Source: a bacterium
GTDB taxonomy: Bacteria; Zhuqueibacterota; Zhuqueibacteria; Residuimicrobiales; Krinioviventaceae
Assembly (NCBI GenBank): GCA_963693055.1
Contig: OY843751.1
Location: 64,001-128,000, forward strand
Direction of reading: 5' to 3'
Length of the DNA: 64,000 nucleotides
Below the pieces are notes generated by a model that was given only the letters and a program-made list of their open reading frames with translations, had not been told where the DNA came from and ran no database searches. Within the stretch, counting starts at the first letter, position 1. Each line of letters starts with the position of its first letter. The translations under genes and the position numbers were made by a program. Shown here piece after piece: positions 9,371 to 29,433 of this stretch.

Positions 9371-9379
9371 GTTGAAAAT

Positions 9380-11565: not shown

Positions 11566-12162
11566 TTACATAAAGCGGGATTGGATATCTTTTAATTCTG
11601 TGGGGGTGTCTGCGTCAAAAAGAATACCATCTGATTGGATAGGAATTTTGTACACAGAATCTTGAAATGTTTTTCCCAAATCTCTGGCGGTTTGATTGGG
11701 TGACATGTTGGGTATTTCTTTTAATACCTGACAGGAATAAAATACAGGATGACCTCCCTGTCCATTAAATTCAGGGATAATAATGTCTTTATCGGTATTA
11801 TTGTGAGCAGTTATTAGTTCATTGATCCAAGCCGCACGGATTTGGGGCTGATCACCAAGGCAGACAATGGCACCCTTGCACTTTTCGGGCAGTGCTAATA
11901 CCCCGGTTTGCAGGGAAGAAAATTGTCCGCGTTTGTAATGTGTATTGATGATAAAATTGGCATGCACACCGCATTGGCTTTTGATCTCTTCCGGCTTGAA
12001 GCCCAGTACAACGATCACTGGCCCAATTCCGGCTTCACTCAGTTGTCCATGGATATGCTGTAAAAAGGTCTTTTCACCAATTTTGAGGATGGGTTTCAGT
12101 TGCCCCATTCTGCGGGACTCACCCGCGGCCAGTATGATTCCGGCAATCATGTTTATTTCCAT
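11566..12162 (-). CDS. mocA: Molybdenum cofactor cytidylyltransferase-like nucleotidyltransferase
   Basis: ILAAGESRRMG, GQFSSL, LGDQP, GHPV, DADTP; next to xdhC. Confidence 0.85.
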   Translation of the reverse strand: MEINMIAGIILAAGESRRMGQLKPILKIGEKTFLQHIHGQLSEAGIGPVIVVLGFKPEEIKSQCGVHANFIINTHYKRGQFSSLQTGVLALPEKCKGAIVCLGDQPQIRAAWINELITAHNNTDKDIIIPEFNGQGGHPVFYSCQVLKEIPNMSPNQTARDLGKTFQDSVYKIPIQSDGILFDADTPTELKDIQSRFM

Positions 12163-12956
12163 GTTTGGGTGTCAATGTTGTTTTTCACTGCAATCATTTC
12201 TGCTGCTATCGAGATAGCGATTTCAGCCGGAGAATCTCCACCAATCGGCAACCCAATGGGACTGTGAATTTGGTCAATCCGTTCAGCGGCAATGCCGTTG
12301 TCTATCAACGTCTTGCGTGTCTGCCCAACTTTGCGTTTACTGCCAATCATTCCCAGATAGGCAAAAGGCTGTTGTACGCAATATTCAAGAATTTCCTGAT
12401 CATGCAAATGTCCGTGTGTAACAATCACGATAAAAGTATGATCCGTAAATGTCAGTTCTGATAATGCCTGATCATAAGGCTTACAAATAACAGAGCGGGC
12501 ATCAGGGAGCCGTTCAGGTGATGCAAATTCAGGACGATTGTCTATGACCGTCATGGTAAATCCGGCGTCTTTGATGACACTGCTCAGTGCTTTGCAGACA
12601 TGTCCCCCACCGAACACATAGAGGGGAGAAGGGGGATTTAGCGGCTCGAAAAACAGGGTCATGTTACCGCCGCATAGCATATGCGTATCTGTTTCCAGAG
12701 AATATTCTTTTAACAAGGGCTCTTTGCTGTTCATTAAATCCATTGCCTGCCGGATCGCTTCTTTTTCAATGGCACCACCGCCAACAGTGCCGTGAGTATT
12801 ACCATTGGAATAGACGATCATACGGGAACCGGATTTTTGTGGAGCACTGCCTTTGGACTCGACCACTGTCACGATCACCGCCGGAATGGAACGTTTTTCA
12901 ATCTCTGCAATTTCAGAATATAATGATTTTTGAACAGTAGGCATTTGATTTTCCAA
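12153..12956 (-). CDS. xdhC: XdhC/CoxI family molybdoenzyme maturation factor
   Basis: GSAP, GTVGGGAIE, CGG, FGGGHV, VTHGH, YLGMIGSKRK, SPIGLPIG..PAEIAISI. Confidence 0.9.
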   Translation of the reverse strand: MENQMPTVQKSLYSEIAEIEKRSIPAVIVTVVESKGSAPQKSGSRMIVYSNGNTHGTVGGGAIEKEAIRQAMDLMNSKEPLLKEYSLETDTHMLCGGNMTLFFEPLNPPSPLYVFGGGHVCKALSSVIKDAGFTMTVIDNRPEFASPERLPDARSVICKPYDQALSELTFTDHTFIVIVTHGHLHDQEILEYCVQQPFAYLGMIGSKRKVGQTRKTLIDNGIAAERIDQIHSPIGLPIGGDSPAEIAISIAAEMIAVKNNIDTQTWK

Positions 12957-13027: not shown

Positions 13028-13834
13028 ATGGAAATTGAGGTGAAAATGAAAAAAGCGTTGTGGTTGTGTCTGCTTTTATTTGTGAGTAGTAATATGCTTT
13101 TTTCTGCAGAAACAAATCTGCCTGAAAAACAAAATTTTCATATTTTCTTACTGGCCGGTCAATCGAACATGGCCGGGCGCGGCAATGTTGATTCATTGAG
13201 CAAACAAATCCATCCGCGGGTGTTAATGTTGACAAAAGACAACAAGTGGGTGCCTGCGGTAGACCCCATACATTATGATAAAAGTGCAGCGGGAGTAGGC
13301 CCCGGCAAGTCATTTGCTCTGGCACTGGTTGAGCAGGACACATCGATTGTCATAGGACTGGTCCCCGCGGCTTGTGGTGGTTCACCTATAGATACCTGGC
13401 AGCCGGGCGGATACCACGATCAAACCAAAAGCAATCCCTATGATGATGCTATTAAACGCGCACGCTTTGCCATGCTGGATGGGTACCTTGAGGGAATTCT
13501 CTGGCACCAGGGGGAAAGCGATTGTGAACCGTTTCTTGCCGGTTCATACAAGACAAAGCTAATCAGTTTGATCTCACGCTTTAGAACGGATCTGGGGTAC
13601 CCTGAACTGCCATTTCTTATTGGGCAAATGGGCCAGTTTGAGAGCAATCCCTGGGATGATTATAAAAAGACCGTGAACCAGGCGCATATCGATGTTGCGA
13701 AAACGGTAGAGAATGCAGCGTTTGTAAAATCGGATGGACTTTCCTGTAGATCCGATAATGTACATTTCAACACTCAATCCGCTCGTGAGTTGGGGAAACG
13801 ATACGCAAAGGCGTATTTGAATCTGAAAAAATAA
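13028..13834 (+). CDS. Sialate O-acetylesterase / CE6 acetylxylan esterase (SGNH)
   Basis: LAGQSNMAGRG, ILWHQGESD, DNVHF; signal peptide. Confidence 0.9.
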   Translation: MEIEVKMKKALWLCLLLFVSSNMLFSAETNLPEKQNFHIFLLAGQSNMAGRGNVDSLSKQIHPRVLMLTKDNKWVPAVDPIHYDKSAAGVGPGKSFALALVEQDTSIVIGLVPAACGGSPIDTWQPGGYHDQTKSNPYDDAIKRARFAMLDGYLEGILWHQGESDCEPFLAGSYKTKLISLISRFRTDLGYPELPFLIGQMGQFESNPWDDYKKTVNQAHIDVAKTVENAAFVKSDGLSCRSDNVHFNTQSARELGKRYAKAYLNLKK

Positions 13835-13916: not shown

Positions 13917-15695
13917 GTGAGATTCAAGGTAATGGTTTTGTTATGGTTTGCATTTTCCATGATTGCACATGCATACTCTAGTGTTGAAGAAATCTATATT
14001 GAAACCGAGTTTTATGGTGTGTTGAACAAGACCCGTGCAGAGTTTATTATTAATAATCAAGGGGACCGCGATGATGAAGCAACGATTACCTTACAATTGA
14101 ACAAATCAGCTATTGTGACGGATATGTGGCTGGAAATTGACGGCAAACTGGAAAAAGCTGAAACAATGGACCGTGATACGGGAGAACAAATCTATGAGCG
14201 TATTGTGGAGAGACAAATTGATCCGGCTTTGATGATTAAGCGTGAAAATGGATTGTACGAATTGAATGTCTTTCCAGTAGAGGCCCGTAAAAGCAGAAAA
14301 GTGGTCATAGAGTATATTTGCGTTGTTGAAAGTGCTGACAAAGGCTACCCGGTTTGGACTTTTGGTACTCGTGCTCAACATGTTTGTCTGAACATAAAAG
14401 AAAAGTATCCTCAAAATATGAATATACATGTTTCACCGCTGCGTTATCAGCTTTACGGTAAATTGATTGATCAAAAAGAAAATTATTTCGAGTTTGAGAA
14501 TCCCAATCGTATAGATCTCCTTCTGTTTTTTAATAACAATTCCCTCAATTTCTTTAAATCAAATTCGAACATGTTATTTGAAAAGCAGGACCTGTCTTTG
14601 AACAGGTATGATTTTGACAGAGATGAATTGGACCAACTCGTAGAATTACTGTTTTATTTAAAAGGGGACCAGCGGTATTTGGTTACCTATAGAAAGGATG
14701 ACAGATTTTTAAAGGCATTTTTTAGCTATTTATCCCGTACGGGTAAAATAAAATATGATTATCATACCGAAGCAAAAAACTGGATTGTCAATCAGCAAAA
14801 TTATGAATACCTGGATGATACTTATCGATTGCGGTCTGATTTTAAAGAGAAAAGCAATGTTGAAAAGTGTTATTGCCCTTTTTTAGATGTATATGAAGAC
14901 TATCTTTTTAGTTTAAAGGAACCTGTAACTGTACAGCGCCTGAAAGGATATTTGACCAAAAGATTCTCCAAAATTGTCATTGAAAAAGATAAACGCGCTC
15001 AACGGATCCGGCAGGAAGAGCTGCAATATCAAGATCGACGCGATGCAAACACCTCGGGGGATTTTCAAACAAAAGCCAATTCGTCACTTGATCAGGATAT
15101 GAGAGTGTCATATTCAATGTCTGCATTGAGATCGGACAATTATGTGCCTGCCAGACCGGTTGGTGGAGATGCTAAAATTCAGGAAAAATTATACTATCCC
15201 TCTTTTTTACAAAAACTCGGATTGGGAGGGACTGTTCGGGTTAGTTGTGGCGTTGATAGATTCGGAAATATAACCCAAACCGACATCGCAACATCACTAC
15301 ATCCGCTCTTGGACCAGGAAGCAATCAGGGCCGTTAATAGTGTTGAATGGGAACCGACAAATAGTGATGGTAAAGACATTAACGGGGGGGGGACAGTCGT
15401 TGTTGAATTTAATAACAATACGAAAATTGTAGAGATGGATGAGATTGAGCACTCTGTTTTTGAACAATTGGGAAGAACGCTCGAGTTGTGGACCGCGAAT
15501 CCGCGTAATGTGTTTGAACAGGGATTTGACGCGGACTCGGCTATAGAACTGGAACTGGAATCTGATGCCTTTTTCAAATTCCTGATGGGGCATCCGGAAT
15601 GCATAAAACTGGTATACCGGTTTTTTTACAGGTTTAAAGCAAATCAATTAGGAGTTGTTGAGAACGACCAGTCTGTGTTGATTTTTAGAAAGTGA
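13917..15695 (+). CDS. Secreted VIT-domain protein with TonB C-terminal domain (paralog 1)
   Basis: GTG start after GGGAGG; signal peptide; VIT (AIVTDMWLEIDG, IYERIV..IDPAL, LNVFPV); TonB_C (YPSF..GTVRV..VDRFG..LDQEAIRAV..WEP). Confidence 0.75.
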   Translation: MRFKVMVLLWFAFSMIAHAYSSVEEIYIETEFYGVLNKTRAEFIINNQGDRDDEATITLQLNKSAIVTDMWLEIDGKLEKAETMDRDTGEQIYERIVERQIDPALMIKRENGLYELNVFPVEARKSRKVVIEYICVVESADKGYPVWTFGTRAQHVCLNIKEKYPQNMNIHVSPLRYQLYGKLIDQKENYFEFENPNRIDLLLFFNNNSLNFFKSNSNMLFEKQDLSLNRYDFDRDELDQLVELLFYLKGDQRYLVTYRKDDRFLKAFFSYLSRTGKIKYDYHTEAKNWIVNQQNYEYLDDTYRLRSDFKEKSNVEKCYCPFLDVYEDYLFSLKEPVTVQRLKGYLTKRFSKIVIEKDKRAQRIRQEELQYQDRRDANTSGDFQTKANSSLDQDMRVSYSMSALRSDNYVPARPVGGDAKIQEKLYYPSFLQKLGLGGTVRVSCGVDRFGNITQTDIATSLHPLLDQEAIRAVNSVEWEPTNSDGKDINGGGTVVVEFNNNTKIVEMDEIEHSVFEQLGRTLELWTANPRNVFEQGFDADSAIELELESDAFFKFLMGHPECIKLVYRFFYRFKANQLGVVENDQSVLIFRK

Positions 15696-15776
15696 TTTGG
15701 GATTTGCCTGGTGCTTGTCAAGTATCAGATAAATAGATTTCTGGTCCCCAATTATTATTTGGTATAATTTTTAGAG

Positions 15777-17549
15777 GTGAATTTGAAAAGAGTATTGTTT
15801 TTGTTATTATTAACCATTTCCACTATTGCTTATGCTAACGTCTATGTAGACGAGATCAGCATCGAGACCGAATTTTATGGCGTGCTGAACAAAACCCGGG
15901 CCGAGTTTATTTTGCGGAATGACAGTGAATGGGACAATCGGCAGGGATTTATTCACTTGTATATCAACAAGACCGCAATTGTTACGGACATGTGGTTAGA
16001 GATTGACGGCAGACTGGAGCGGGCCGAGACCCTTGCCCGGCAAACCGGTGAACAAATCTATGACCGCATAACCCGCCGCAATATAGATCCCGCAGTATTG
16101 ACAAAGTCGGGTAATGGCATCTATGAATTACGTGTTTTTCCGGTCAATGCCCACAGCAGCAGGCGGGTGGTGATCGAGTATGTGTGTATTGTTGAAAGCA
16201 GTGGTAAGAGTTTTGACTTTGTTTGGCTGTTTAACGCGGAAGCAAAAACTAAAACTATCGATGTGATTAAGAAATACCCTTCGGACATTGATATTTGTGC
16301 TTCATCTGTTTTAAAAGAGGATGTTGAAACGTCTGGGGATTTTTTCAGGGTTAAAGATAATCGTAAATTCGGACTAATTTTGGATGTGCCTTTCTCTGAA
16401 TTTGCGTTTTACAATAATAAAAGTTATATGGTTTTGAAAAACCACGAGATTGTTGTCAATCCCAAATATTACAATTGTTACAATGCCGTTCAACTTGAAA
16501 CATTGATTTGGGATATTGATCATTTCCCCAAATACCTGGTAAAATATGTTTACGGGGGCAATCCCTTTATTCAATCCTTTCTGGAATACCTGGAACGGAA
16601 AAAATTGATCGAGCTAGAATATCACCAGGAAGCGCCCGGCTGGTTACAGAGAGACAAAATGTGGACGTATTACGATCCGGCTTTTACATTGACATTACAA
16701 CCGCTGGCACGAAATGCCATAGACGAGTACTATTGTCCGTTTCTTGATGTATATCAGGATTATTTAGCTATTTTAAAAACAACACTCGCCGAGCAAAAGG
16801 ATAAAGGCTTTCTGGTAGAACGGCTTTCAAAACTGGTGATTGAGGATGACAGGCGCGCACAGCGGATCAGGCGGCAGGAGCTTGAGAATGAGGATTGGGA
16901 GTCGTTGGAGGAGTCAATTGAACCTGCTCCTGATGAATATGAGCAAAAGCCCTCCGACAATATGGATAATGATGGTGTATCTGCAGAAGCATTTATTGCA
17001 TATGATGAACCACCTTCGCCTATTGGTGGATTTTCTGCAATCCATAAAAAATTAAATTTCCCCAGATTCTTATTGTATAGATATGAAGGTAAGGTCATTG
17101 TGACCTGTCTAATTGGTGAAGATGGAAAAGTATTAGAAACCCGAATATTAAAATCTCTTCATCCCCTGCTTGACCAGGCGGCAATCGATGCGATCAGAGC
17201 TACTGAGTGGAAACCTGCGAAACAACGTATCAAGCCGGTCAAGGTTTGGATTTCTATTCCACTGGTTTTCAGGCAAGGAGGGAAAAAAGATGTTATTGAG
17301 TTGTCTGACAGCTTTGTATTTAAAGATCGAGAGTTTTATTGTGAATCCGATGAAAAGTACATTTGTTGTGAATCTGGATTTAATGAAAAGCAATGCATAG
17401 GTTTTGCAGCCGGTACAGAAGACTTTTTTAAATATCTGATTGAGAATCCGGATATTATTGCGTTTGTGGATTTAATTTACAACAATACGAGGGAATGGCA
17501 ATTGGGCTTGGTTGTTGAAGGTCAATCTGTGATGTTTGTGAAGGAGTGA
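15777..17549 (+). CDS. Secreted VIT-domain protein with TonB C-terminal domain (paralog 2)
   Basis: Same architecture; TonB_C YDEPPSPIGG..EGKVIV..IGEDGKV..LDQAAIDAI..WKPAKQR..PVKVWISIPLVF. Confidence 0.8.
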   Translation: MNLKRVLFLLLLTISTIAYANVYVDEISIETEFYGVLNKTRAEFILRNDSEWDNRQGFIHLYINKTAIVTDMWLEIDGRLERAETLARQTGEQIYDRITRRNIDPAVLTKSGNGIYELRVFPVNAHSSRRVVIEYVCIVESSGKSFDFVWLFNAEAKTKTIDVIKKYPSDIDICASSVLKEDVETSGDFFRVKDNRKFGLILDVPFSEFAFYNNKSYMVLKNHEIVVNPKYYNCYNAVQLETLIWDIDHFPKYLVKYVYGGNPFIQSFLEYLERKKLIELEYHQEAPGWLQRDKMWTYYDPAFTLTLQPLARNAIDEYYCPFLDVYQDYLAILKTTLAEQKDKGFLVERLSKLVIEDDRRAQRIRRQELENEDWESLEESIEPAPDEYEQKPSDNMDNDGVSAEAFIAYDEPPSPIGGFSAIHKKLNFPRFLLYRYEGKVIVTCLIGEDGKVLETRILKSLHPLLDQAAIDAIRATEWKPAKQRIKPVKVWISIPLVFRQGGKKDVIELSDSFVFKDREFYCESDEKYICCESGFNEKQCIGFAAGTEDFFKYLIENPDIIAFVDLIYNNTREWQLGLVVEGQSVMFVKE

Positions 17550-17593
17550 TTTAAATCCTATAGTCTTTGAATCCTATTTGACATAATTCAGAC

Positions 17594-17644
17594 AGAACGG
17601 CCCTTCGATGCATCCGCCAACAGCTGATACTCGGGGACCGTTCT
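17594..17644. repeat. Hairpin/REP-like element between convergent operons
   Basis: AGAACGGCCCTTCGA...TCGGGGACCGTTCT; related element at 5001-5047 (ACGGCCCTT...CCGTTCT). Confidence 0.45.
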
Positions 17645-17651
17645 TCCTTTT

Positions 17652-19820
17652 TTATAATCTTCCCCGTAAGCCCAGGGTAAAGGCGCGCATGGGCATGAGG
17701 TTGCTTTCGCGTGGGGCATAGTTGTAATTCATCATATTGGTCACACCAAGCTGAAAAGTCAGCATTCTCCAGTCCACATCAATACGCGCGTCTACAAAAT
17801 GCATGGGTACACGTTCGTTAATGGGATAGATTTTGACTTCGGCAATCTCGCTGGCATAGCGGTAATCCAGTTGAAAATTGTACCTACCGGATCGGAGTGT
17901 GGTTTTGGCTGTGGCCAGCCAGTCCGGACGATAGGTGAGGGGCTCGTCATATTTGAGGTTCCGATGGTGCATATAGGTGACACTACCCTCGATGCCGGGG
18001 GTCATGCGGATGCCGAACAGTCGCACCGGAGTGCTGAATTTGGTCAGGAATTCCACGCCTTGAATGCGCGCACGTGGTATATTGCGGAACTGGATTTGTC
18101 CACGGATCAGGTCCAGATGCGCTTCAATCAGCTCCCAATAATCGTTGCGGAACAGGGATATGTCAAAATTCCAATCCTTGTTGATATACTGTCGCCATCC
18201 CAGATCATAGGCCCAGGAGCTTTCGGATTTGAGCTCGGGATTAGCTTTGATTTTGAAATTCATGACGGTCATTTCCAGGAAACGCTCGGTAATGGTTGCG
18301 GCCCGGAAACCGCTGCCCACAGACAGACGAAAGCTGGTGGGTTCCCATGGCTGCCAGTTGACACCAAAACGGGGACTAATCAAATCTTCCTTATCACCAC
18401 CAACGAGTTTATAACGATCGTAACGGAATCCTGTGGTGAGGCGCAGGTTTTCGCGTACTTTCCATTCGTCCTGAATATAGGGCCCGACAAAGTAACCGCT
18501 GTGCTTTCCAAAGTATTTGGTGCTGCCGGAATCGTCCTGGTACTGGGTTCCGACAGTGACCACATGGCCGAAAACCGGAATCCAGTTGGCCTGGATCTCG
18601 CCACCCTGCCCAATTGCAGGATCAAATTCCGCATCTTTGCCGAACTGGTTGCCAAGCAAAGAACGGTTCATGGATGCACGCATATCGATTGAAAATCGCG
18701 CGTTGAACGGCACCGAGAGTTTGGTATACAAGCTGAGTTGGTTAACCTCTGATCGATTGTCGAGATTGGACGGGTCGACCTGGTATGGATCGTTGGGGCC
18801 TTTCCACTGTACAAAAAAGCCCTTGTTGATTTTGCTGTATGCAGCGTAACCGGTCCATTTGATACCGTTTTTAAAACGGTAATCCACTTTACTGGTCAGA
18901 TTTTGTTTACGGAAATCACCCAGTTCGGTATAACCGGTAGACATGAAACGCCCTGCAGAAACGCGCACACCCAATTGTCCATAACGCTTGCTATAGCTGA
19001 CGTCTTCGCGGGTATAGTGCAATCGATTGGGATCGGTCCATTCCCACTCGCTGTACGCAGGCTTGTCGTATTTACCGGCAGAATACGAAAAGAGTAGTGC
19101 TCCTTCCGGGGACGGATCTTTGGTGATAATGTTTACCACACCGCCCAATGCAGAAGAACCCCAAAGGGTAGAACCCGCACCTTTGAGCACTTCAATCTGT
19201 TCAATGTCAAGCGGCGGCAGCATATCCCAGTTGAACGCGCCGGTATCGCTTGCGTAAACAGGTACGCCATCCAGTAACAGCAGGGTCTTGTTGCCCGCTC
19301 CGAATGTGAATCCCGTAGAACCACGTATATTGATCTGGTCACCAATAAAGTTAATGCCGGGGGCGGTTTCCAACGCTTCGATGATGCTGGTGGGATTACG
19401 GCGTTCAATCTCCTTGGACGAGACCACGGACATGGATACGCTGGCCTGGTCCAGTCGCATTTCGGTTTTACCGGCCAGCACCACAATGGGGTCGAATTCA
19501 AGTGTGGTCTGCTCGAGAATAAAATTTACATTGACTGTACGATTGGCCTGCACGGTGACTTTTTGATGGGAATCCGTACGGTAACCAATCATGGATGCCC
19601 GCAGCTTGTAGGTACCCGGCGGCAGGTTCGCGATGGTAAAGTTGCCGTCCATATCCGTACTGGCACCGCGTACAGTTCCGTCTACAATTACATTAACGGC
19701 TTGTAAAACATCGCCGGTTTCCTCGTCCTTGACTGTACCGGTGATTGTGCCGGTAATCGCCGCAAAGGAGATGTTGGATGCAAATAAAAGAATTGCTATA
19801 TATACTAATCTTTTCATCAT
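17652..19820 (-). CDS. TonB-dependent receptor with N-terminal CarboxypepD_reg-like domain
   Basis: GTITGTVKD..GASTDMDGNF, plug (INIRGS, LLLLDGVP, IEQIEVLKGAGSTLWGSSALGGVVNIITK), NPELKSE. Confidence 0.92.
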   Translation of the reverse strand: MMKRLVYIAILLFASNISFAAITGTITGTVKDEETGDVLQAVNVIVDGTVRGASTDMDGNFTIANLPPGTYKLRASMIGYRTDSHQKVTVQANRTVNVNFILEQTTLEFDPIVVLAGKTEMRLDQASVSMSVVSSKEIERRNPTSIIEALETAPGINFIGDQINIRGSTGFTFGAGNKTLLLLDGVPVYASDTGAFNWDMLPPLDIEQIEVLKGAGSTLWGSSALGGVVNIITKDPSPEGALLFSYSAGKYDKPAYSEWEWTDPNRLHYTREDVSYSKRYGQLGVRVSAGRFMSTGYTELGDFRKQNLTSKVDYRFKNGIKWTGYAAYSKINKGFFVQWKGPNDPYQVDPSNLDNRSEVNQLSLYTKLSVPFNARFSIDMRASMNRSLLGNQFGKDAEFDPAIGQGGEIQANWIPVFGHVVTVGTQYQDDSGSTKYFGKHSGYFVGPYIQDEWKVRENLRLTTGFRYDRYKLVGGDKEDLISPRFGVNWQPWEPTSFRLSVGSGFRAATITERFLEMTVMNFKIKANPELKSESSWAYDLGWRQYINKDWNFDISLFRNDYWELIEAHLDLIRGQIQFRNIPRARIQGVEFLTKFSTPVRLFGIRMTPGIEGSVTYMHHRNLKYDEPLTYRPDWLATAKTTLRSGRYNFQLDYRYASEIAEVKIYPINERVPMHFVDARIDVDWRMLTFQLGVTNMMNYNYAPRESNLMPMRAFTLGLRGRL

Positions 19821-19833
19821 TGGATTTCCGTGC

Positions 19834-20637
19834 TTAATCATTGATATTGTCCCAGTCGGCGTGGATGTCAATATCTGTAGCTGTCTGGTCTTGTCGTAAA
19901 CGGAGTGTGCCAGGTGATGTCGAGTCTACCGGATCAACATAATAGCCAACGGTTTTGAAATCATCCAGACCTGAGCGATCAGAGAGCCAGAGTACTACCA
20001 CATATTTAATAATTGCAGGACCTTTGATTGGCAGTTTGTAGTGAAAAGGATTTTCGTCTACACTGAAATCCATGGATTTCAGATAGATGAGATGTTCAAG
20101 ATCGTTTGTCGGTCTCTGCGAATAAGCTGCAACTGCAGTGAGCAGGGTTGAATCCGGAAACGCACGGTCAAAATAGATTGTACCTTCTATGCTGGCATCT
20201 CTGTCGACCCGTTCCAGATTGGCCCACAGATCTGTCTGATGTACCGGTGCATTTTCTGTGATGTCAAACTCGTAGGGCAGCAGCTCATTGTTGAACTTTA
20301 ATGTGAAAAGATCGGCAAGGTTGGAGACGGTGTTTTTATTATACCACCACAGTCCAATTGCCTGATAATGTCCATAAGGTAATTCCATAGACGTGATAAC
20401 CGTATCCTCACCCAATGGCAGACTGTTGGGACTGAGAAACATTTCATTAATAGCGTGGGGAGGAAATTGGGGCGCTACAAATAAATAAACACCCTCTGTA
20501 TTTTCGGGTATATCCTCAGTGGAAAAATAAATATTCAAGTCCAACCTGCCGGGCAGGGGTTCAATGCCATGATTGTCACCGCACGACAAAAATATGGATG
20601 ATATGAATAAAGTTAATAAAAGATAAACGTATTTCAT
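19834..20637 (-). CDS. Lipoprotein with two tandem copies of the domain in 26304-26774
   Basis: Lipobox FLSC; FPP motif; ends GYY.DP...TATDIDIHADW. Confidence 0.75.
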   Translation of the reverse strand: MKYVYLLLTLFISSIFLSCGDNHGIEPLPGRLDLNIYFSTEDIPENTEGVYLFVAPQFPPHAINEMFLSPNSLPLGEDTVITSMELPYGHYQAIGLWWYNKNTVSNLADLFTLKFNNELLPYEFDITENAPVHQTDLWANLERVDRDASIEGTIYFDRAFPDSTLLTAVAAYSQRPTNDLEHLIYLKSMDFSVDENPFHYKLPIKGPAIIKYVVVLWLSDRSGLDDFKTVGYYVDPVDSTSPGTLRLRQDQTATDIDIHADWDNIND

Positions 20638-20668
20638 GTTCTTTCCTGATCCGTTTTGGATGTTTGGT

Positions 20669-22393
20669 TTAACGTACCATTATCAATTTTCGGGTTGAAA
20701 CGAAATTTTCTGTTGTTAACTTGTAAAAATATACACCCGTGGGTACAATGTCTCCGTTCATATTGGTACCGTTCCAGTACACATTGTGCTTCCCTTTTGA
20801 CAAATAGCTGTTAGCAAGCGTTGTGACCAATTGTCCCTGTGTATTGAATATTTCAAGCTTGGCATGTCCGTTTGCAGCCAGATTATATGTGATCCGTGTT
20901 GAGTGATTAAACGGATTGGGATAATTTTGAAATAGCTGATGGGTTGATATATGTTTAGAGTAATTGCTTTCTTTGACAGATACTTTGATTGAGCTTTTTA
21001 CTGCCAAGGTATCCAAAACATTATGATATAAAATATCGCCTTCAGACTGTGTCATGTTTGTTTGAGGAAGGAAAAATGCGGTATAGCCGAGATACAATGA
21101 TATCGTATCACCTATCATTGATTTAAAATTGACGCCAAAATCTCCATAGGATTTGTTGTCACCGGTATCCGGAATCGGGTCCTGACCTTGCGGGCCATCA
21201 GAGTTGTCATAATAGTAAAGGTGTGCTTCATCCCAATCTTTTTCTTCGTATTTTCCACAAATAAATACAGTACCCCAAGTTCCGGTCAACATACCCCATG
21301 TTGTTAAAGGGAGTTGGGGATTCCCAGGCATGTCAAGCGCATTGTTTACAATGTCCGGTTGTCCGTCAACCAGAATTTCATTATTATGAGGATTGACGAA
21401 TTTCATGCCTGTAACATTTTCATTAAAATCCCAGGAAAAACGCAGGCTGTCCGGATAAAAAGCAGCATCTGAAAAGGGAAAGAGTTCGCCAAAATCTTTT
21501 TTGTCCAGTTTTGCGCCACCCCAGATTGATGCACTGTACGGCGTCATTTTGGTTTTGACCCAGAAATAAAATTCATCAAAAATCAAGTTGTTGATTTGCA
21601 AGGTGTGTTTGGTTTGACGGATAACCCTGACCCGAGGATTTTTTGTATAATAGAATTCAGGGGCCGTATACAAGTATTGCTCGGTAGCATTAATGGGAAA
21701 GAATCCAATGCTTGCATCCAGTCTGCCATAAAAGCGTAATTTTAGAATATCAAACAAATCCGTACTGCTTTCAATACCATTTTTGTGAATAAAAATATCA
21801 TCCACCACACCATTGGGGCTGAATCCCAAAGTATATTTTGATGTTTTAACAGCGTCAGATTCGGTTAGATATTCCATATTGTATGGTGAGGGGATATCAT
21901 TTTGATCAAGTGTATTAGATCTGTATAAATACAAGTAGGCAAGTTGGTCTGTATTTACCGGATTATAAACTTTTACTTCTAACCTTTTATTGTTTTTAGA
22001 ATCCGGGTCATCTATCCAGGAACTGTCGGGGGCCTGATCTCCGAGATCGTTGACCATAAAAACCAGTTCGTCGTGATCATCAAATATTTTGTTATGGTCT
22101 AAAATTCCCGCATCATGCAATTCCGGGTAAATAAAATATGTCCATCGATCCAAACCATTTATGGGATCAGCTGCCCAGGTTTGTTCGTCAATTTGAAATG
22201 GCACCAAGGTCCATGTGTCATTTTCAGCATTATATGAATAAGCATAAATTTCATTTATTGGAGTCTCTAACAGATCTGGAAAATAGTATGCATGATAAGC
22301 AACTGTTGAATACTGAAAATCCTCTTGCAGAGTCCCTGCGTATAAACCTGCTGTTAATAGCATATATAGGGTTATGTAGAATATGTTTTTCAT
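20669..22393 (-). CDS. Secreted protein with T9SS type A/FlgD-Ig C-terminal domain
   Basis: Signal peptide; C-terminal LFQNYPNPFN..IFNTQGQLV..WNG..GVYFYKL..RKLIMVR. Confidence 0.85.
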   Translation of the reverse strand: MKNIFYITLYMLLTAGLYAGTLQEDFQYSTVAYHAYYFPDLLETPINEIYAYSYNAENDTWTLVPFQIDEQTWAADPINGLDRWTYFIYPELHDAGILDHNKIFDDHDELVFMVNDLGDQAPDSSWIDDPDSKNNKRLEVKVYNPVNTDQLAYLYLYRSNTLDQNDIPSPYNMEYLTESDAVKTSKYTLGFSPNGVVDDIFIHKNGIESSTDLFDILKLRFYGRLDASIGFFPINATEQYLYTAPEFYYTKNPRVRVIRQTKHTLQINNLIFDEFYFWVKTKMTPYSASIWGGAKLDKKDFGELFPFSDAAFYPDSLRFSWDFNENVTGMKFVNPHNNEILVDGQPDIVNNALDMPGNPQLPLTTWGMLTGTWGTVFICGKYEEKDWDEAHLYYYDNSDGPQGQDPIPDTGDNKSYGDFGVNFKSMIGDTISLYLGYTAFFLPQTNMTQSEGDILYHNVLDTLAVKSSIKVSVKESNYSKHISTHQLFQNYPNPFNHSTRITYNLAANGHAKLEIFNTQGQLVTTLANSYLSKGKHNVYWNGTNMNGDIVPTGVYFYKLTTENFVSTRKLIMVR

Positions 22394-22462
22394 GATAGGT
22401 CCTTTTGATTATTTAACAATTCTAAACAATCGAAGCAAGTTATATGTTCCTGGCGATACTAT

Positions 22463-24148
22463 TTAATTCATGATCAGCAGTTTGCCTGACAACTGTTGAT
22501 TGGTACCGGTTACGCGGTAAAAATAGATACCCTGACTGACCGGCTGTCCGTTTAGACCCTTACCATCCCAGGAAAGTGCCTGAGAGGATTCGGGAATGAG
22601 GCTGATATTGTTGAATTGCATGACCTTTTGCCCCAGTATATTGTATATACTCAATTGAACATTCTTTTGCAAGTTAATATTCTGAAAAGAAAAGGTAACA
22701 TTTCCATTGCCAACTTGATATGGATTCGGGTATGCCGCATTGAGCTCAAAATCCAATGGTTGTATTGTGTTGTCAGCGATATTTGTGGATACATATTCCT
22801 GTTCTGCTACAGATAAGGTGAGTGGATTCAGGTGCTGTTCTGTAAGCAGATCACCCAGTTCTGCGGCATGCTGGCGCATATCCTGATTGATAAAATAGAG
22901 CGAATAGCGAAAAAAGACCTGGCTGATTTTAAGGCCGTCGCTGGTTGTCTTGCTCCACATTCCCATATCTCCATAGGATTTCTGGTCGCCGGTATCGTCT
23001 GATCCGTCTTTGGAGCCGCCGTTTTTGTCGTCATAGTAAAACAGGGTGGTGTTGCCGCGTTCCACCTCGGGCATTTGCAGCATTAAAATGACCGTACCCT
23101 TTTCGCCGGTTGCCATCATCCAGTTTAACGCAAAAGGTTCGTCTACAATTGCTTCGGGAGTATCCGGTTCACCATCAATGGCAAATCCATTACGGTTTTT
23201 GTTGCTGTAATAGGTCATGCGAGAGGCATTGGGAGACATGTCCAGTGACAAACGTATAAAATTAACACGAACCTGGCCCAGAAACGCACCGCCAATGTTC
23301 AGATCTACCTCTCCCTGGATCGAATAGGGGAAATATTGCAGTTTGGGGTCCAAATCCAGATCAAGACTCAGAACGGACAGATCCACCTTGAACTTGTCGC
23401 GAATATCTCTGAACAACCGGACCTCTCCCGGAAACGCGGATACCGGAGAGCCCTCGGCGGTATCGGTTTTGGGCGTAATGCTGTTCTCGTTGATCTTGAT
23501 GTCTGTGGGTATTAACGTAGAGGTTGCATCAAAACGCATTTTCAGGCGGTCAAGCAGGTCAAGATCGGAATTGTTGTCAAAAGTCAGATAATTGAAAAAA
23601 CCATTGTTTTGATGTGCCAGTTTGTAATAACGGCTGAAAACCGTGTCTGCTGCTGAAACAGAAGGATTTGGCGGGGGAGTGTAATCAAAATAGCCGTTAT
23701 GCAATGCTATTTCAACTACATTTTTGTAAAGATATACCCATCCCTGTTTTGAAGCGTCAAGGGGATCGGTAAATTCCAGTTCCAGGCGTGTATCTGTTTC
23801 AGGATCTGCGTCAACAAGCCATTCTGAAGCAGGGGCTTTATCGCCCAGATCACCCGGCATGAACACCAATTCGTCTTCTGCTCCGATGATGGGATTGATA
23901 GAGGCTACAGTGTGTTCGTAACCGCCATTTGATTTGATGTCGTCGATCTGAAAGGGTACGCTTTTCCACGAGCTAGTGGATTGGTCATAAACCCAGGCGC
24001 TCCAAACCGCACGTTCGCTGCCGGCAATGGGTGCCTCCAGATCGCTAAGGACGATAGGTGTATACTGGCGATCAAGTGTTTTTGTTTGTGAAAAGGCTGT
24101 TCCCAAAAACAAAAAAACAGAAAATAGTATTAATATCATTCGTTTCAT
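22463..24148 (-). CDS. Secreted protein with T9SS type A/FlgD-Ig C-terminal domain (paralog of 20669-22393)
   Basis: Signal peptide; AYPNPY..IYNILGQKV..WDG..GIYFYRV; shared VPFQID, DELVFM, DTGD.KSYGD motifs. Confidence 0.85.
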   Translation of the reverse strand: MKRMILILFSVFLFLGTAFSQTKTLDRQYTPIVLSDLEAPIAGSERAVWSAWVYDQSTSSWKSVPFQIDDIKSNGGYEHTVASINPIIGAEDELVFMPGDLGDKAPASEWLVDADPETDTRLELEFTDPLDASKQGWVYLYKNVVEIALHNGYFDYTPPPNPSVSAADTVFSRYYKLAHQNNGFFNYLTFDNNSDLDLLDRLKMRFDATSTLIPTDIKINENSITPKTDTAEGSPVSAFPGEVRLFRDIRDKFKVDLSVLSLDLDLDPKLQYFPYSIQGEVDLNIGGAFLGQVRVNFIRLSLDMSPNASRMTYYSNKNRNGFAIDGEPDTPEAIVDEPFALNWMMATGEKGTVILMLQMPEVERGNTTLFYYDDKNGGSKDGSDDTGDQKSYGDMGMWSKTTSDGLKISQVFFRYSLYFINQDMRQHAAELGDLLTEQHLNPLTLSVAEQEYVSTNIADNTIQPLDFELNAAYPNPYQVGNGNVTFSFQNINLQKNVQLSIYNILGQKVMQFNNISLIPESSQALSWDGKGLNGQPVSQGIYFYRVTGTNQQLSGKLLIMN

Positions 24149-24158
24149 ATCAGACTCC

Positions 24159-26303
24159 TTAAAAGTCTCCGCTTACCGAGAACATGAAATTACGGATCTC
24201 TCCCAGCACACGTTCGGAAACCGTATAGTTGTAATTTAATGCGTTCTTTATCTGTATTTGAAATGTCAATGCATTCCAGCGGTAATTCAATCGAATGTCC
24301 CAGATTTTTGTAGGTACTTTTTCATCAAGGGGATACACGGCCACTTTTTTGATTTCACTCATGTAGCGGTAATCTGCTTCAAGCGCAAAGGGACCGTAAT
24401 AGAGGCCCGGTGAAATATATCCTAAAAATTTTGCACGATAAATCAGTGGCTCGTCTGTTTCAAGATCTTTGGGGTCCATATAGGTGGCAGAAGCCTGCAA
24501 TTTTATATGGTCTTGCCACAGGTCCCAGCGCATTTCAGCTTCTACGCCCGTAATTCTGGCCCGGGGATAGTTGAGAAATTGTGCAGTCAAGTCAGATTTT
24601 AATGTAGGTTCTATGAGATGTTTGTATGTGCTATTGAAAAAAGTAACTTCTGCATAGGCTTTTTTACCAATATTTTGCCGTACACCTATATCAAACAGTT
24701 TTGACCTTTCCGGCATCAAATCCGGATTCGGCAGCGCTTTAAAATCGCTTGATCCCGCAGAGATAAATCGCTCAACAACCGTTGCGGCACGGAATCCCAT
24801 GCCCCATGAAGCATGTAGAACCGTTCCCAGCAGAGGTTGATAGCTTGCACCGATCTTGGGAGATGCTTGCCATTCGGTTGAATCTCCAACCAGCGTATAG
24901 GTATCCAATCGCACTCCGGTATTGATCTGCAGCAGGTTGGTGATCTGCCAGATTTCCTGCAAATATGGTGAAATGCCATTGGCGTAGCGTTGGCCGTAAT
25001 ATTGGGATTCTACCTCATCATATTTGTAATCCACACCCATGGACAAGCTATGGTCCGGATGGGGCTTCCAGTTGACTTGAGCTTCACCGCTTAATCCCAG
25101 CGCCGGCGTAAAAGCACTGGTTATATTAAAGGGTACACCTACAAGCTGCTGATTATAAGATAACCGGGCTTTGGTGGATAGTGTGGGGGAGAATAGTTTG
25201 TTAAATACCGCATAGCCAACAAAGCCGTCAATGGTGTATCGGTTGCCCAACTCGGTTGGCGGGACCTTGAGTGCCTGGTCCTGTTCCAGCCATTGTAGAA
25301 ACAGTTCGCGATCATCAATACTGTAAGTGGAGAACAGGGTTAATGTGGATTGCCCCGGAAGCTGGATATGGGACTTGCCGGTAAAGTACCAGCGTTCAAA
25401 AAATCCATTTTGCCTGTCACCGGTGGATTTGTGATGAGAAACCGCCAGGCGCAGTCCAACCGGGCCATAGCTGTCTGACAAGCTGACATCCGTTCTCTGG
25501 TAATACAGGGACTCGTTGGTCCATTTCCATTCGGGAACAGATGGCTCGTCATAAATACCGGCGCTTTGCCGGAAGGATACACTCAGGTCGTTAGACGGCA
25601 TCTTTGTGAAAATATTGATCACACCGCTAAGCGCACCTGATCCGTATAAGGAAGATGCCGCACCTTTGAGTACTTCCATGTGCTCAATTTCTGTAACGGG
25701 CAGAATGTTCCAGTTGGCCGTACCCAGATCACTGGTTAAGATGGGCACGCCATCTAATAGCACCAGTGAACGGCTGCCGCCTAAACGATTGTAACCAGAA
25801 CCACCCCGAATATTTACGTTTTCACCGACAATAGTTACTCCCGGAACACTGAGCAAGGCATCATCGATACGAAATGCGTTGCGCCGTTTAATATCCCGCT
25901 GCCCCAGAATATTGATGCTGGAAGCCGCCGAGGCAAGTGTTTCCGGCTGTCTTGAGCCGGTAACCACAATCTGTTCGGTCTGTAGTGTGGTGGGTGCCAG
26001 AATAAAATCATGTATTACCGTCTGGTTGGCACGTACTGTGATGTTTGCTGTTTGTGTGCCATAGCCCATGAAACTGGCTTTGATAGTGTACGACCCGGGT
26101 TGAATACGAATTGTGTAATTGCCTTTTTCGTCCGTTCCGGAACCAATAAAGGTGTTTTCGATAAACACATTGGCTCCTGGTAGAAAACCTTTTGTATCAA
26201 CCGCACGCAAGGTTCCTTTGATAGTACCGGTAACAGCTGCAGACAGGCTGCAGGTGGTTATAGTAATGATTGTTAGTGCAATATAAATTTTGTTCCGCAT
26301 CAT
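24159..26303 (-). CDS. TonB-dependent receptor with N-terminal CarboxypepD_reg-like domain
   Basis: IVVTGSR, VNIRGGSG, LLDGVP, EVLKGAASSLYGSGALSGVINIFTK, C-terminal Phe. Confidence 0.92.
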   Translation of the reverse strand: MMRNKIYIALTIITITTCSLSAAVTGTIKGTLRAVDTKGFLPGANVFIENTFIGSGTDEKGNYTIRIQPGSYTIKASFMGYGTQTANITVRANQTVIHDFILAPTTLQTEQIVVTGSRQPETLASAASSINILGQRDIKRRNAFRIDDALLSVPGVTIVGENVNIRGGSGYNRLGGSRSLVLLDGVPILTSDLGTANWNILPVTEIEHMEVLKGAASSLYGSGALSGVINIFTKMPSNDLSVSFRQSAGIYDEPSVPEWKWTNESLYYQRTDVSLSDSYGPVGLRLAVSHHKSTGDRQNGFFERWYFTGKSHIQLPGQSTLTLFSTYSIDDRELFLQWLEQDQALKVPPTELGNRYTIDGFVGYAVFNKLFSPTLSTKARLSYNQQLVGVPFNITSAFTPALGLSGEAQVNWKPHPDHSLSMGVDYKYDEVESQYYGQRYANGISPYLQEIWQITNLLQINTGVRLDTYTLVGDSTEWQASPKIGASYQPLLGTVLHASWGMGFRAATVVERFISAGSSDFKALPNPDLMPERSKLFDIGVRQNIGKKAYAEVTFFNSTYKHLIEPTLKSDLTAQFLNYPRARITGVEAEMRWDLWQDHIKLQASATYMDPKDLETDEPLIYRAKFLGYISPGLYYGPFALEADYRYMSEIKKVAVYPLDEKVPTKIWDIRLNYRWNALTFQIQIKNALNYNYTVSERVLGEIRNFMFSVSGDF

Positions 26304-26774
26304 TTACTCCTCATCCGGTAAAAGTGACCAGTCGCAAATAATGTCGATTCCCGTGGCAACGGGATGGTGTTTGGACAGGGTGATAGTCGTTTCCTTACTT
26401 TCCCAGGTAACGGGATCAAAACCATAATATCCCAGCCATTTTAAATAATCCCATTCTTTACCCTTGACCTTGTACACGGCAACAATCAAGTGGTAGGTGC
26501 CAAGAGGAGCAGGAATATAATAATCCGGTTCGGTTTTGCTCAAATTGACCGAACGATTGGTGAAAACCACATCGCCCAGGGATTCGGGCGGAAAGTTCAC
26601 CACACCCACAATACGTACAGATTCTACATAATCCGGTTTTTGGTCGGGATTCAACAGGATGATTTTACCCGAGATGCGGGAATCCATTGTGCCCAATCCT
26701 TGATCGATTTCGCACGATAGCCAGAGCAAGGGTGATAAAAGTAAAAATAATCGGAATATTGTCAAAAGACGCAT
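26304..26774 (-). CDS. Lipoprotein, hypothetical
   Basis: Lipobox WLSC; ISGKI, NFPP, LGYY.FDP, VATGIDIICDW. Confidence 0.75.
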   Translation of the reverse strand: MRLLTIFRLFLLLSPLLWLSCEIDQGLGTMDSRISGKIILLNPDQKPDYVESVRIVGVVNFPPESLGDVVFTNRSVNLSKTEPDYYIPAPLGTYHLIVAVYKVKGKEWDYLKWLGYYGFDPVTWESKETTITLSKHHPVATGIDIICDWSLLPDEE

Positions 26775-26956: not shown

Positions 26957-26983
26957 AAATCCGGGTGAATTTCACCCGGATTT
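26957..26983 (-). terminator. Intrinsic terminator of the MinD-like gene
   Basis: AAATCCGGGTGAA-T-TTCACCCGGATTT immediately after the stop codon. Confidence 0.75.
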
Positions 26984-26984: not shown

Positions 26985-28085
26985 TTATTTTTGAGTTTGT
27001 GGAAAAGAAAGCTGAATCTTGCTGGGTTCATATGCTTTACCCTCGTCCGGTGTAGACAAACCGAATGGGCGCATATCTTTGGTCAATTTCCTCAATTGGT
27101 TGCTGAAATCAATATAGCCCAAGTAATTGATATCGATCATGAGTAATTTTTTAATTTTTTCTTTGAATGCAGCCGCTTCTGTAGCTTCCTCTTCGCTATA
27201 AACCATATTGGTTACCATTTTGGGTTTAAAACTTTGAATGGTAGCCATAAAAAATGACGCAGCGCGAGGGTCGAAATTTTGTATTTTTTCAAATACAGAG
27301 TAGAGTGAGTTTTCGTATTTTTGCCAATCCCAATGTTCAAATTCTTTGATCTTGGCAGTAGAAAATTCACAGAAATCAAGCGCTTTAAGTAATTTGCGAA
27401 TTATACTGACCCGTATAAAGTTGAACGCATCCATAAAAGATGTAGGATCCGGGATGGTCACAATGATACCATTGTCACACGCCAGAAATAAATCAATCGT
27501 CTGATAAGAAACACCAGGACTCATGTCAACCAGAACAAAATCCGCTTCAAGCTGATGTAAGTGTCTGTGGAATTTGCTTCTGCTAAAGAAATTGGGATTC
27601 GAGTGTGCAATGTTTGCAATCTCTCCACCAATCAGTTGTACATTGGGATAAGGGGTTTCAACCAGCAATTGTTGAAGTTTTACACCTTTGTATTGAAAAA
27701 AGGTGTTTAACGTGATGGGGGGCCTGCTAACACCTACCCATTCATGCAGATCGGGGCCACCAAGATCAGCATCCACAATGATCACTTTTTTGCCAAGGGC
27801 TCCCAGTTCTATTGCCATTGAAGCGGTTATTGCAGTTTTTCCTACACCGCCTTTGCCGCTGGCAAACGCGTAAACCTTGGACCTCCCGGTTTTCTTTTTC
27901 ATTTTGTCGAAATAAGGTTTAAATTGCTCAATCTTGCCAATGGGTGTCCATTCATTTGTTTTAGGAGTCCAGACAAGATCCCGGTCGGTGGAGAGACCTT
28001 CTTCTATAAACCAGGGGGCATCAGTAGTTTTTAGTGGGCCGTATCGATACTGCGGTGTTTTAATGTATAAAGCATCCATTTCCAT
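26985..28085 (-). CDS. MinD/FlhG(FleN)-family ATPase with N-terminal GYF_2-like extension
   Basis: ASGKGGVGKT deviant Walker A, VDADLGG, VDMSPG, VTIPDPTS. Confidence 0.85.
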   Translation of the reverse strand: MEMDALYIKTPQYRYGPLKTTDAPWFIEEGLSTDRDLVWTPKTNEWTPIGKIEQFKPYFDKMKKKTGRSKVYAFASGKGGVGKTAITASMAIELGALGKKVIIVDADLGGPDLHEWVGVSRPPITLNTFFQYKGVKLQQLLVETPYPNVQLIGGEIANIAHSNPNFFSRSKFHRHLHQLEADFVLVDMSPGVSYQTIDLFLACDNGIIVTIPDPTSFMDAFNFIRVSIIRKLLKALDFCEFSTAKIKEFEHWDWQKYENSLYSVFEKIQNFDPRAASFFMATIQSFKPKMVTNMVYSEEEATEAAAFKEKIKKLLMIDINYLGYIDFSNQLRKLTKDMRPFGLSTPDEGKAYEPSKIQLSFPQTQK

Positions 28086-28369: not shown

Positions 28370-28442
28370 GGCGCATTCGTCTAGGGGTTTAGGACGCTGG
28401 CCTCTCACGCCGGTAACACGGGTTCGAATCCCGTATGCGCTG
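28370..28442 (+). tRNA. tRNA-Glu (CTC)
   Basis: Acceptor stem GGCGCAT/ATGCGCT, anticodon loop CTCTCAC, GGTTCGAATCC; no encoded CCA. Confidence 0.95.
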
Positions 28443-28460
28443 CGAAAGTATAAAATATAC

Positions 28461-28534
28461 GCGCCCATAGCTCAATTGGATAGAGTGTCTGGCTACGGAC
28501 CAGAAGGTTAGGGGTTCGACTCCCTTTGGGCGCG
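28461..28534 (+). tRNA. tRNA-Arg (ACG)
   Basis: GCGCCCA/TGGGCGC, loop CTACGGA, GGTTCGACTCC. Confidence 0.95.
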
Positions 28535-28558
28535 CTTAAAAAAACGACGGCACCCGAT

Positions 28559-29014
28559 ATGAATGATCATTCAAGTTGGATGCGATTTGCACTGGCTGAA
28601 GCTCAAGAAGCTTATGCCAAAGATGAAGTGCCGATAGGTGCAGTCATTGTGTGCAATGGGGAGATCATTGGCAACGGACATAACCTGGTAGAGACACGCC
28701 AGGATCCCACCGCACATGCTGAAATGCTGGCAATTCAGGCGGCATCACAGGCAAAGCATTCATGGCGATTAGAAGACTGTATTTTGTATACCACACTTGA
28801 GCCCTGTGTTATGTGTGCGGGAGCCATTTTGCTTTCCAGGATCCAGGCAGTGGTGTTTGGAGCATACGATCCCCGATATGGTGCTTGCGGTTCTGCTTTG
28901 CAGATAGCCGACAATGATCGTTTGGATGTCAGGGTCCCCTGTACAGGCGGTGTACTGGAAAAAGAGTGTAGCACTATAATTAAAACTTTTTTTGCCGAGA
29001 TCCGTAAACGGTAA
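28559..29014 (+). CDS. tadA: tRNA adenosine(34) deaminase
   Basis: [26 protein letters not shown]. Confidence 0.95.
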
Positions 29015-29030
29015 CATGAACGCACCAACT

Positions 29031-29115
29031 GGAGAGATGCGAGAGTGGTTGAATCGGGCGGTCTCGAAAACCGTTGTGCCTTCGGGTACCCAGGGTTCGA
29101 ATCCCTGTCTCTCCG
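29031..29115 (+). tRNA. tRNA-Ser (CGA)
   Basis: GGAGAGA/TCTCTCC, loop CTCGAAA, long variable arm. Confidence 0.95.
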
Positions 29116-29139
29116 CACATTAAAAATTTATCTTTACCC

Positions 29140-29404: not shown

Positions 29405-29433
29405 ATTAATTTGAACAAGCAAGCGGTATCGAT

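Follow-up and report, generated by a model that had tools for sequence, protein, structure and literature searches.

A candidate SusD-less, lipoprotein-assisted TonB uptake module in KSB1 bacteria

RESULTS

Gene content of the locus

The window analysed here is a 64,000-nucleotide stretch of a KSB1 genome (GTDB lineage Zhuqueibacterota, Residuimicrobiales, Krinioviventaceae; assembly GCA_963693055.1, contig OY843751.1, positions 64,001 to 128,000). This genome is denoted G000, and G001 is a genome of the same genus. Two plus-strand genes, whose products combine a VIT domain with a TonB C-terminal domain (TonB_C), converge on a minus-strand block encoding two lipoproteins (LP_A and LP_B), two TonB-dependent receptors (TBDR_A and TBDR_B) and two predicted secreted proteins with a type IX secretion system (T9SS) tail (SEC_A and SEC_B). 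The conserved unit is the minus-strand block, which consists of two old paralogous modules, LP_A-TBDR_A-SEC_A and SEC_B-LP_B-TBDR_B (Table 1).

An earlier note on this DNA had listed eight open reading frames (ORFs), and all are present with the strands and domains claimed, as judged from the ORF list and Pfam/NCBIfam scans. Its view of the minus-strand block as a non-Sus receptor system that has lipoproteins and T9SS-tailed proteins of its own is borne out by the conservation of the block across loci and the lack of SusD. Other statements needed adjustment. Every component was said to be paired, which holds for the VIT–TonB proteins, the receptors and the T9SS-tailed proteins and does not hold for the lipoproteins, as LP_A has one copy of the shared domain and LP_B has two. 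In the same scans, none of the eight proteins matched a SusD, carbohydrate-active enzyme (CAZyme) or regulator family at E ≤ 0.1, as the note had held; its exclusion of CAZymes is weakened in that the SEC fold is predicted to be of a CAZyme type and an SASA esterase gene adjoins VIT1.

Table 1. Features of the locus, in window coordinates
Feature	Position	Strand	Description
SASA esterase gene	13028-13834		Just 5′ of VIT1; Pfam
VIT1	13917..15695	+	Signal peptide, VIT, unannotated middle, internal TonB_C, C-terminal tail
VIT2	15777..17549	+	VIT+TonB_C paralog of VIT1 (36% identity)
TBDR_B	17652..19820	-	TonB-dependent receptor, clade B
TBDR_B start	ORF open from 19871	-	ATG at 19841 or 19820 is the likely start
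LP_B	19834..20637	-	Lipoprotein, 267 aa, two tandem predicted beta-sandwich domains, invariant FPPHAINE-type loop
SEC_B	20669..22393	-	SEC_A paralog, first core gene of module B
SEC_A	22463..24148	-	435-aa unannotated domain (predicted small beta domain + beta-supersandwich) and T9SS type A tail
TBDR_A	24159..26303	-	TonB-dependent receptor: CarboxypepD_reg, plug, barrel; clade A
LP_A	26304..26774	-	Lipoprotein, 156 aa, one ~125-aa predicted beta-sandwich domain; first gene of module A
Perfect hairpin	26957..26983		Between MinD/FlhG-like gene and LP_A

The receptors

TBDR_A and TBDR_B are 38% identical, and both consist of a CarboxypepD_reg domain, a plug and a barrel, with PF07715 (plug) and PF00593 (barrel) above cut-off. 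The plug is preceded by EQIVVTG in one receptor and DPIVVLA in the other, which are candidate TonB boxes. At 714–739 aa the receptors are shorter than the ∼1000-aa SusC/RagA type and lie far below the cut-off of TIGR04056 (116.5 and 125.8 bits against 368), so assignment to that type was rejected. Heme and hemoglobin receptors have a conserved His between their FRAP and NPNL motifs. The FRAA...NPxL loop of the present family has no conserved His, any His being found in only 3 of 58 rows and at differing positions, and no riboswitch, cobalamin type included, was found at the locus. The absent loop His and the absent riboswitch argue against heme or B12 as cargo; both receptor types were rejected. 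The BtuB model scores far below its cut-off.

A quick receptor tree, in which G001 stands in for the window's own A and B rows, recovers three groups, each with an SH-aLRT support of 100: clade A with 17 rows, clade B with 31 and clade C with 17. It does not resolve the sister relation of A and B. As TBDR_A and TBDR_B fall in separate old clades, each spanning several families, a recent tandem duplication was rejected.

Conservation of the modules

Gene order was compared in 79 GTDB loci retrieved with two clade-B peptide patterns (the best 80 of 82 matches), a sample that says nothing on the range outside KSB1. The gene immediately before the receptor is LP in 60 of the 61 loci with at least 1.2 kb of upstream sequence, and SEC lies upstream of the receptor in 43 of the 46 with at least 3.5 kb. 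The same LP–TBDR adjacency is found in all 20 further loci taken from distant families and in 18 of 19 clade-C lipoprotein loci. LP and TBDR are the invariant core of the module, and SEC is a frequent third member. Both families are near-universal in KSB1 genomes of at least 85% completeness, with LP in 121/133 and the SEC domain in 125/133. Because the genomes are related by descent, these counts show conservation and do not represent independent origins. Plasmid searches with SEC_A and TBDR_A gave no match.

Within the order, 20 loci from other genera were compared, and 15 of them have the complete six-gene block arranged as in the window; L022 lacks LP_A, L033 and L034 lack LP_A-TBDR_A, and L019 and L021 have module B only. 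Outside the order, in 20 loci picked by SEC score, SEC_B-LP_B-TBDR_B is present in 11, a further SEC-LP-TBDR paralog in one and SEC-SEC-LP at a contig end in one. Other SEC-LP-TBDR paralogs were seen at L052, L090, L091, L093 and L099. Genes are often inserted between SEC_A and SEC_B (L018–L034; 20 loci), namely a DSD1-like pyridoxal phosphate enzyme (15 loci), an acyl-CoA ligase (8), a transglutaminase-like lipoprotein (7) and MscS (6); neither the window's genus nor genus g5 has these inserts. Since most loci have inserts at this point, the block is to be regarded as two units, which are contiguous in those two genera.

The lipoproteins and the SEC proteins

By inspection, the LP_A signal ends in LLWLS-C. 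Nearly every LP row has acidic residues just after the lipidated Cys, a pattern which we take to resemble the surface-export signal of Bacteroidota. Neither LP_A nor LP_B has a Pfam or NCBIfam match (Pfam E ≤ 0.1), and comparison of the two reveals a domain of ∼125 aa, present once in LP_A and twice in LP_B (hhalign 97.6% and 93.9%). The LP_B model (pLDDT 89.5) is nearly all beta and contains two tandem beta-sandwiches, and the LP domains are predicted to be transthyretin-like sandwiches. PDB sequence searches with the LP and SEC profiles returned nothing significant. LP look-alikes in the Atlas come from Calditrichota, Latescibacterota and Bacteroidota (0.93–0.95) and are unaligned leads. A 551-aa LP-domain protein at L069 (G003:C78:14000-32000) is encoded together with FadL, arylsulfotransferase, FabH-like, sulfotransferase, DUF1302, MMPL and LolA-like genes.

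SEC_A and SEC_B are 27% identical over their whole length. Each has a signal peptide and a type A tail (TIGR04183, 44.3 and 39.6 bits, cut-off 23), and SprA (662 bits) and PorV (311 bits) are present in G000, so that the usual features of T9SS cargo are all found. This genome also has 22 PorV-family paralogs above cut-off and well over 100 T9SS-tail matches, which amounts to a very large T9SS cargo set. The N-terminal 435–450 aa have no Pfam match, yet they define a family of 2,229 representatives (clusters at 50% identity) at E ≤ 0.001, or 590 at 1e-30. Look-alikes in the Atlas include Pseudomonadota clusters (0.91–0.92), again as unaligned leads. In family f12 (L086, L087, L097 and L098), tandem SEC-domain genes adjoin ABC permease genes, and the one scanned has a cohesin domain.

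The SEC_A domain model (pLDDT 94.6) superposes on residues 35–507 of the PL26 lyase 5xq3 with Z 17.8 and a root-mean-square deviation (rmsd) of 4.0 over 312 aligned residues, at 10% identity. Galactose-mutarotase-like folds match at Z 15 or less and the YidC periplasmic domain at Z 13.4. The likeness is to the non-catalytic half of PL26 (domains I–II), and the T9SS tail follows directly after the 435-aa module; membership of the PL26 lyases was rejected because there is no catalytic barrel, and that of the PL26/DUF4861 profiles because 0 of 83 rows match (E ≤ 0.5). The first 76 SEC columns are weakly like DUF4861 (hhalign 17%, E 0.0014, 12 rows), and PF21345, the second PL26 domain, matched 1 of 41 relatives. 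Over 272 distinct SEC rows, D180, K183, R185, R224, R279, S281, D283 and an acidic D353...DTGD...SxGDxG loop are 85–99% conserved, and no His is conserved. To judge from this pattern, the conserved residues likely form a binding surface.

The VIT–TonB proteins

The TonB_C domains of VIT1 and VIT2 are intact (Pfam, 45 and 55 bits). An energy-transducing TonB has an inner-membrane anchor, a proline-rich spacer and a terminal TonB_C. In VIT1 and VIT2 the only hydrophobic stretch is N-terminal and ends in AxA, a proline-rich spacer is missing, and TonB_C is internal, with ∼90 residues C-terminal of it. A canonical exbB-exbD-exbD-tonB-exbD-exbD-tonB locus lies elsewhere (G000:6308715-6312809), and both of its TonBs have transmembrane anchors and 16–19 linker prolines. 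Given this locus and the missing linker, a role for the VIT–TonB proteins as energiser was rejected. The TonB_C of VIT2 is ∼50% identical to those of the canonical TonBs, which fits a recent domain graft. A further protein of G000 (C1:414360-416015) joins a BlaR1/M56-like N-terminus, identified by inspection, to two tandem TonB_C domains ∼50% identical to that of VIT2.

The earlier note had proposed that the two proteins are dedicated adaptors of the receptors, and had made their linkage to the receptor operon in other genomes one half of the test of this idea. With a profile built on their unique middle region, the family was detected in 4 of 167 KSB1 genomes; full-length matches to VIT2 occur in 3 of 41 related genomes, and the protein database holds five members. 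The genes adjoin the receptor operon in G000 and G001 only, G001 having the layout of the window. Both G017 and G071 carry the receptor module, unlinked to the VIT–TonB gene: in G017 a single copy lies amid malic-enzyme, pectinase-like and permease genes, and in G071 its neighbours are a second TonB_C protein and DUF5686/histidine-kinase genes, in each case on a different contig. Among the 55 GTDB loci with at least 3 kb of downstream sequence, a single one (G001) has a VIT–TonB gene downstream of the receptor. The adaptor proposal is therefore not supported, on linkage as well as on the rarity of the family and the lack of a proline-rich linker. Because the family is rare, is unlinked in G017 and G071 and is found at 1 of 55 loci, and canonical TonBs are encoded elsewhere, the convergent adjacency is best read as genus-level happenstance. 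The best reading of VIT1 and VIT2 is as bystanders, genus-level neighbours outside the conserved system, and we assign them no role.

A third paralog in a probable fatty-acid regulon

A third LP–TBDR pair and a third SEC protein are encoded elsewhere in G000. The pair, LP_C-TBDR_C, has fadL directly 5′ in 16 of 18 loci, a divergent YsiA-like TetR gene in 15/18 and etfB-etfA-fadF in 8/18. In G000 (C1:3557489-3570439; L073), fadF-etfA-etfB-tetR(YsiA-like) diverges from fadL-LP_C-TBDR_C-M49 peptidase-pepF, an arrangement conserved across the order. The best score of the clade-C TetR is with Bacillus FadR (173 bits against a cut-off of 200), which in B. subtilis controls etfBA and fadF, according to the portion consulted of PMC5397183.

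Together, 12 tetR-fadL gaps contain 24 copies of the palindrome TGAA-N5-TTCA, compared with 0.1 in shuffles, and the gap of L073 has 2–3 sites. Its half-sites recall the Bacillus box and its spacing differs. G000 was left out of the operator training, and its tetR-fadL gap is the top site cluster. In this genome the operator site is found at 3 of 8 acyl-CoA-ligase homologs compared with 31 of 4,063 ORFs. In the other genomes, it is present at only 2 of the 8 acyl-CoA ligases inserted between SEC_A and SEC_B. On account of the fadL, TetR and etf neighbours and the conserved operator, clade C very likely sits in a fatty-acid regulon, and the setting of LP_C-TBDR_C, downstream of fadL and opposite the gene of a FadR-like repressor whose operator is conserved, points to a lipid-type cargo. 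Two strong operator-like sites also lie between two uncharacterised exported-protein genes (G000:C1:3237950-3238061).

Neighbouring genes

The hairpin upstream of LP_A likely terminates the upstream transcript. A promoter/terminator scan gave numbers near chance (48 against 36.8, and 18 against 15.6). The MinD/FlhG-like ATPase gene (26985-28085), which precedes LP_A in G001, G014 and G017 as well, has a weak N-terminal GYF_2 match (22.7 bits, below cut-off). Beyond it, positions 28370-29407 hold four tRNAs, the SRP RNA and a tRNA-deaminase-like gene, followed by dnaX-ybaB-recR. On the other side of the locus (6060-12956) there are, by inspection, genes for molybdo-hydroxylase large and FAD subunits and MoeA-like, MobA-like and XdhC-like proteins, together with DUF4395.

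DISCUSSION

On balance we favour the interpretation that the minus-strand block encodes uptake modules which dispense with SusD, are assisted by a lipoprotein and draw their energy from ordinary TonB. We are confident that the module comprises receptor, lipoprotein and SEC without VIT–TonB, and the lipoprotein is probably the physical partner of its receptor. LP would be anchored at the surface and would cap or dock on the cognate receptor in the place of SusD, whilst SEC, predicted to be exported by the type IX system, may capture, present or loosen the substrate there. The plug would be pulled by the housekeeping ExbB-ExbD-TonB encoded elsewhere. The lid contact, the surface location, the role of SEC and the substrate are likely features that we infer, and the folds of LP and SEC are predictions. 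By analogy with the third paralog, the most likely cargo would be acylated and amphipathic, either a lipid or a lipopeptide. For modules A and B such a cargo is a tentative assignment, and the best single guess, because of the paralogy with clade C and the inserted acyl-CoA ligase. Broader and more doubtful is the possibility that KSB1 and its sister phyla possess an undescribed class of lipoprotein-capped TonB-dependent transporters (TBDTs) which scavenges acylated molecules, an energised lipid import beside FadL. In such transporters a transthyretin-like sandwich would form the lid and a supersandwich protein exported by the T9SS would do the capturing. The cargo would then come from dead cells, in the form of membrane lipids, lipoproteins or lipopeptides, and be taken up in step with FadL and beta-oxidation.

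A number of observations weigh against this interpretation, or against its choice of cargo. No operator was found upstream of LP_A, SEC_B or SEC_C in G000 (best scores −3.3 for LP_A and −1.4 for SEC_B), and in 16 relatives the surroundings of LP_A have no site with a score of at least 10; as there is none before LP_A or SEC_B, we do not assign modules A and B to the FadR regulon. In the 20 LP–TBDR loci from distant families, SEC is not found next to the pair and lipid genes do not recur (one FadL homolog and one FadR-like TetR). SEC stands alone in 7 of the 20 SEC-picked loci outside the order, and in some loci SEC pairs lie beside ABC permeases. The pairing of LP and receptor has exceptions, in that L139 has no LP upstream, L021 has LP_B without a downstream TBDR, and the L069 protein is without a TBDR. 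The best structural match of LP_B is weak and generic (pilotin ExsB, Z 7.2, rmsd 3.8, 98 aligned), with no match reaching Z 8, and the predicted SEC fold is typical of carbohydrate-active proteins. Finally, an M49 lipoprotein peptidase and an M3 peptidase (PepF) follow TBDR_C in most loci, and the commonest insert between SEC_A and SEC_B is the DSD1-like enzyme, both of which suggest a cargo of amino acids or peptides no less than one of lipids.

These last points lead to the alternative of a RagAB-like role with a different lid, in which the modules take up peptides or amino-acid derivatives released by proteolysis and the fatty-acid link is specific to clade C or accidental. Besides the peptidases behind TBDR_C, the DSD1-like enzyme (15/20) and the transglutaminase-like lipoprotein (7/20) inserted in A/B loci fit such a cargo, as do a C1 peptidase upstream in five A/B loci and the SEC pairs found elsewhere beside ABC permeases or M14 peptidases. 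However, the clade-C genes are the second and third behind fadL under a FadR-type operator, and the peptidase neighbours differ from clade to clade, so we regard this alternative as unlikely. The fold of SEC raises the further prospect of SusD-less glycan uptake, with SEC as a glycan-binding or -modifying supersandwich protein. Its model matches PL26 domains I–II and galactose-mutarotase folds, the invariant D180, K183, R185, R224, R279 and D283 could bind an acidic sugar, and the weak likeness over 76 columns is to DUF4861, a family required for glycosaminoglycan use in B. thetaiotaomicron (PMC8121099, from the part available). Yet the PL26 catalytic barrel is absent, no CAZyme gene recurs among the neighbours in the loci examined, and the SEC fold is shared by proteins that have nothing to do with glycans, the YidC periplasmic domain being one example; glycan uptake thus seems improbable.

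The other two alternatives concern the partners of the receptor. LP might face the periplasm and act, like a pilotin, as a factor for receptor assembly or stability, and ExsB and the Vibrio type II secretion pilotin (Z 6.6) are indeed among the top structural neighbours of the LP domain. Values of Z under 8 may, however, reflect only a common sandwich, and the acidic residues after the lipidated Cys, presumably akin to the Bacteroidota surface-export signal, occur in nearly all rows; we consider a pilotin-like role quite unlikely. That the VIT–TonB_C proteins are periplasmic adaptors of TBDR_A and TBDR_B, all forming one system, is very hard to sustain. The two proteins, with intact TonB_C domains, do lie beside two receptors, adjacent and convergent in G000 and G001, but a family in 4 of 167 genomes is set against LP and SEC in 121–125 of 133, and it is unlinked in G017 and G071 and found downstream at 1 of 55 receptor loci. 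The lone hydrophobic stretch with AxA and no proline-rich linker, and the resemblance of the VIT2 TonB_C to the canonical TonBs expected of a recent graft, also speak against it. Patchy TonB_C fusions with extra domains, moreover, are described as common and uncharacterised in Bacteroides in the part consulted of 10.1101/2023.07.07.548152.

Favouring lipoprotein-assisted uptake, we consider the main outcome to be the definition of two large unannotated families, a TBDR-linked lipoprotein and a 435-aa secreted domain, both near-core in this widespread phylum of uncultured sediment bacteria. Lipoprotein-assisted TonB uptake would then no longer be limited to SusD and BtuG or, as far as gene context goes, to Bacteroidota. 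The FadR-type operator at one paralog offers a testable substrate class. With the VIT–TonB adaptor idea removed, the receptor–lipoprotein–SEC module proves wider than the window suggests. We found no description of such a system in a literature search that left most subscription journals outside, and the accessible main text of two KSB1 genome papers does not contain the word 'TonB'.

Comparison with known systems

The modules would work like SusCD or BtuBG yet belong to neither. As in SusC-SusD/RagA-RagB of Bacteroidota, a CarboxypepD_reg receptor stands beside a cognate lipoprotein, with extra surface proteins in the operon. Here, in contrast, the lipoprotein has no SusD match, is a predicted all-beta tandem sandwich and is encoded upstream of the receptor, and the accessory protein is T9SS-tailed. 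Membership of the SusC/SusD utilisomes was rejected because TIGR04056 is below cut-off and LP, lacking a SusD match, gives a nearly all-beta model and not a helical one.

In BtuB-BtuG, as described in the accessible part of PMC10404256, a small receptor likewise has a dedicated non-SusD lipoprotein, and the conservation of a cognate lipoprotein beside the receptor is found here too (60/61 and 20/20 loci). BtuG, however, is a seven-bladed beta-propeller whereas LP is a predicted beta-sandwich, the window's receptors score far below the cut-off of the BtuB model, and there is no cobalamin riboswitch. The same source calls lipoprotein-capped TBDTs apparently exclusive to Bacteroidetes, whereas the present locus is in KSB1. 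The PusCD phospholipid-utilisation complexes of Flavobacterium (10.64898/2026.09.03.749221, seen in part) are a precedent for a TBDT–lipoprotein pair in lipid use. By their description they are set apart as SusCD-like and as supplying phosphorus, compared with a non-SusD-like lid and a FadR/FadL link here.

The VIT–TonB proteins resemble the TonB_C fusions of B. thetaiotaomicron (TonB1, 7–11) and VIT-domain proteins in placing TonB_C on an unrelated domain and in their patchy spread; they differ in the VIT partner with a degenerate middle, the internal TonB_C and the five proteins found. SEC, for its part, shares its predicted architecture with domains I–II of the PL26 exo-rhamnogalacturonan lyase: a small beta domain at the N-terminus and, after it, a supersandwich of the galactose-mutarotase-like type. 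It differs from PL26/DUF4861 in having no catalytic barrel, in its 10% identity and in that 0 of 83 members match these Pfam families at E ≤ 0.5.

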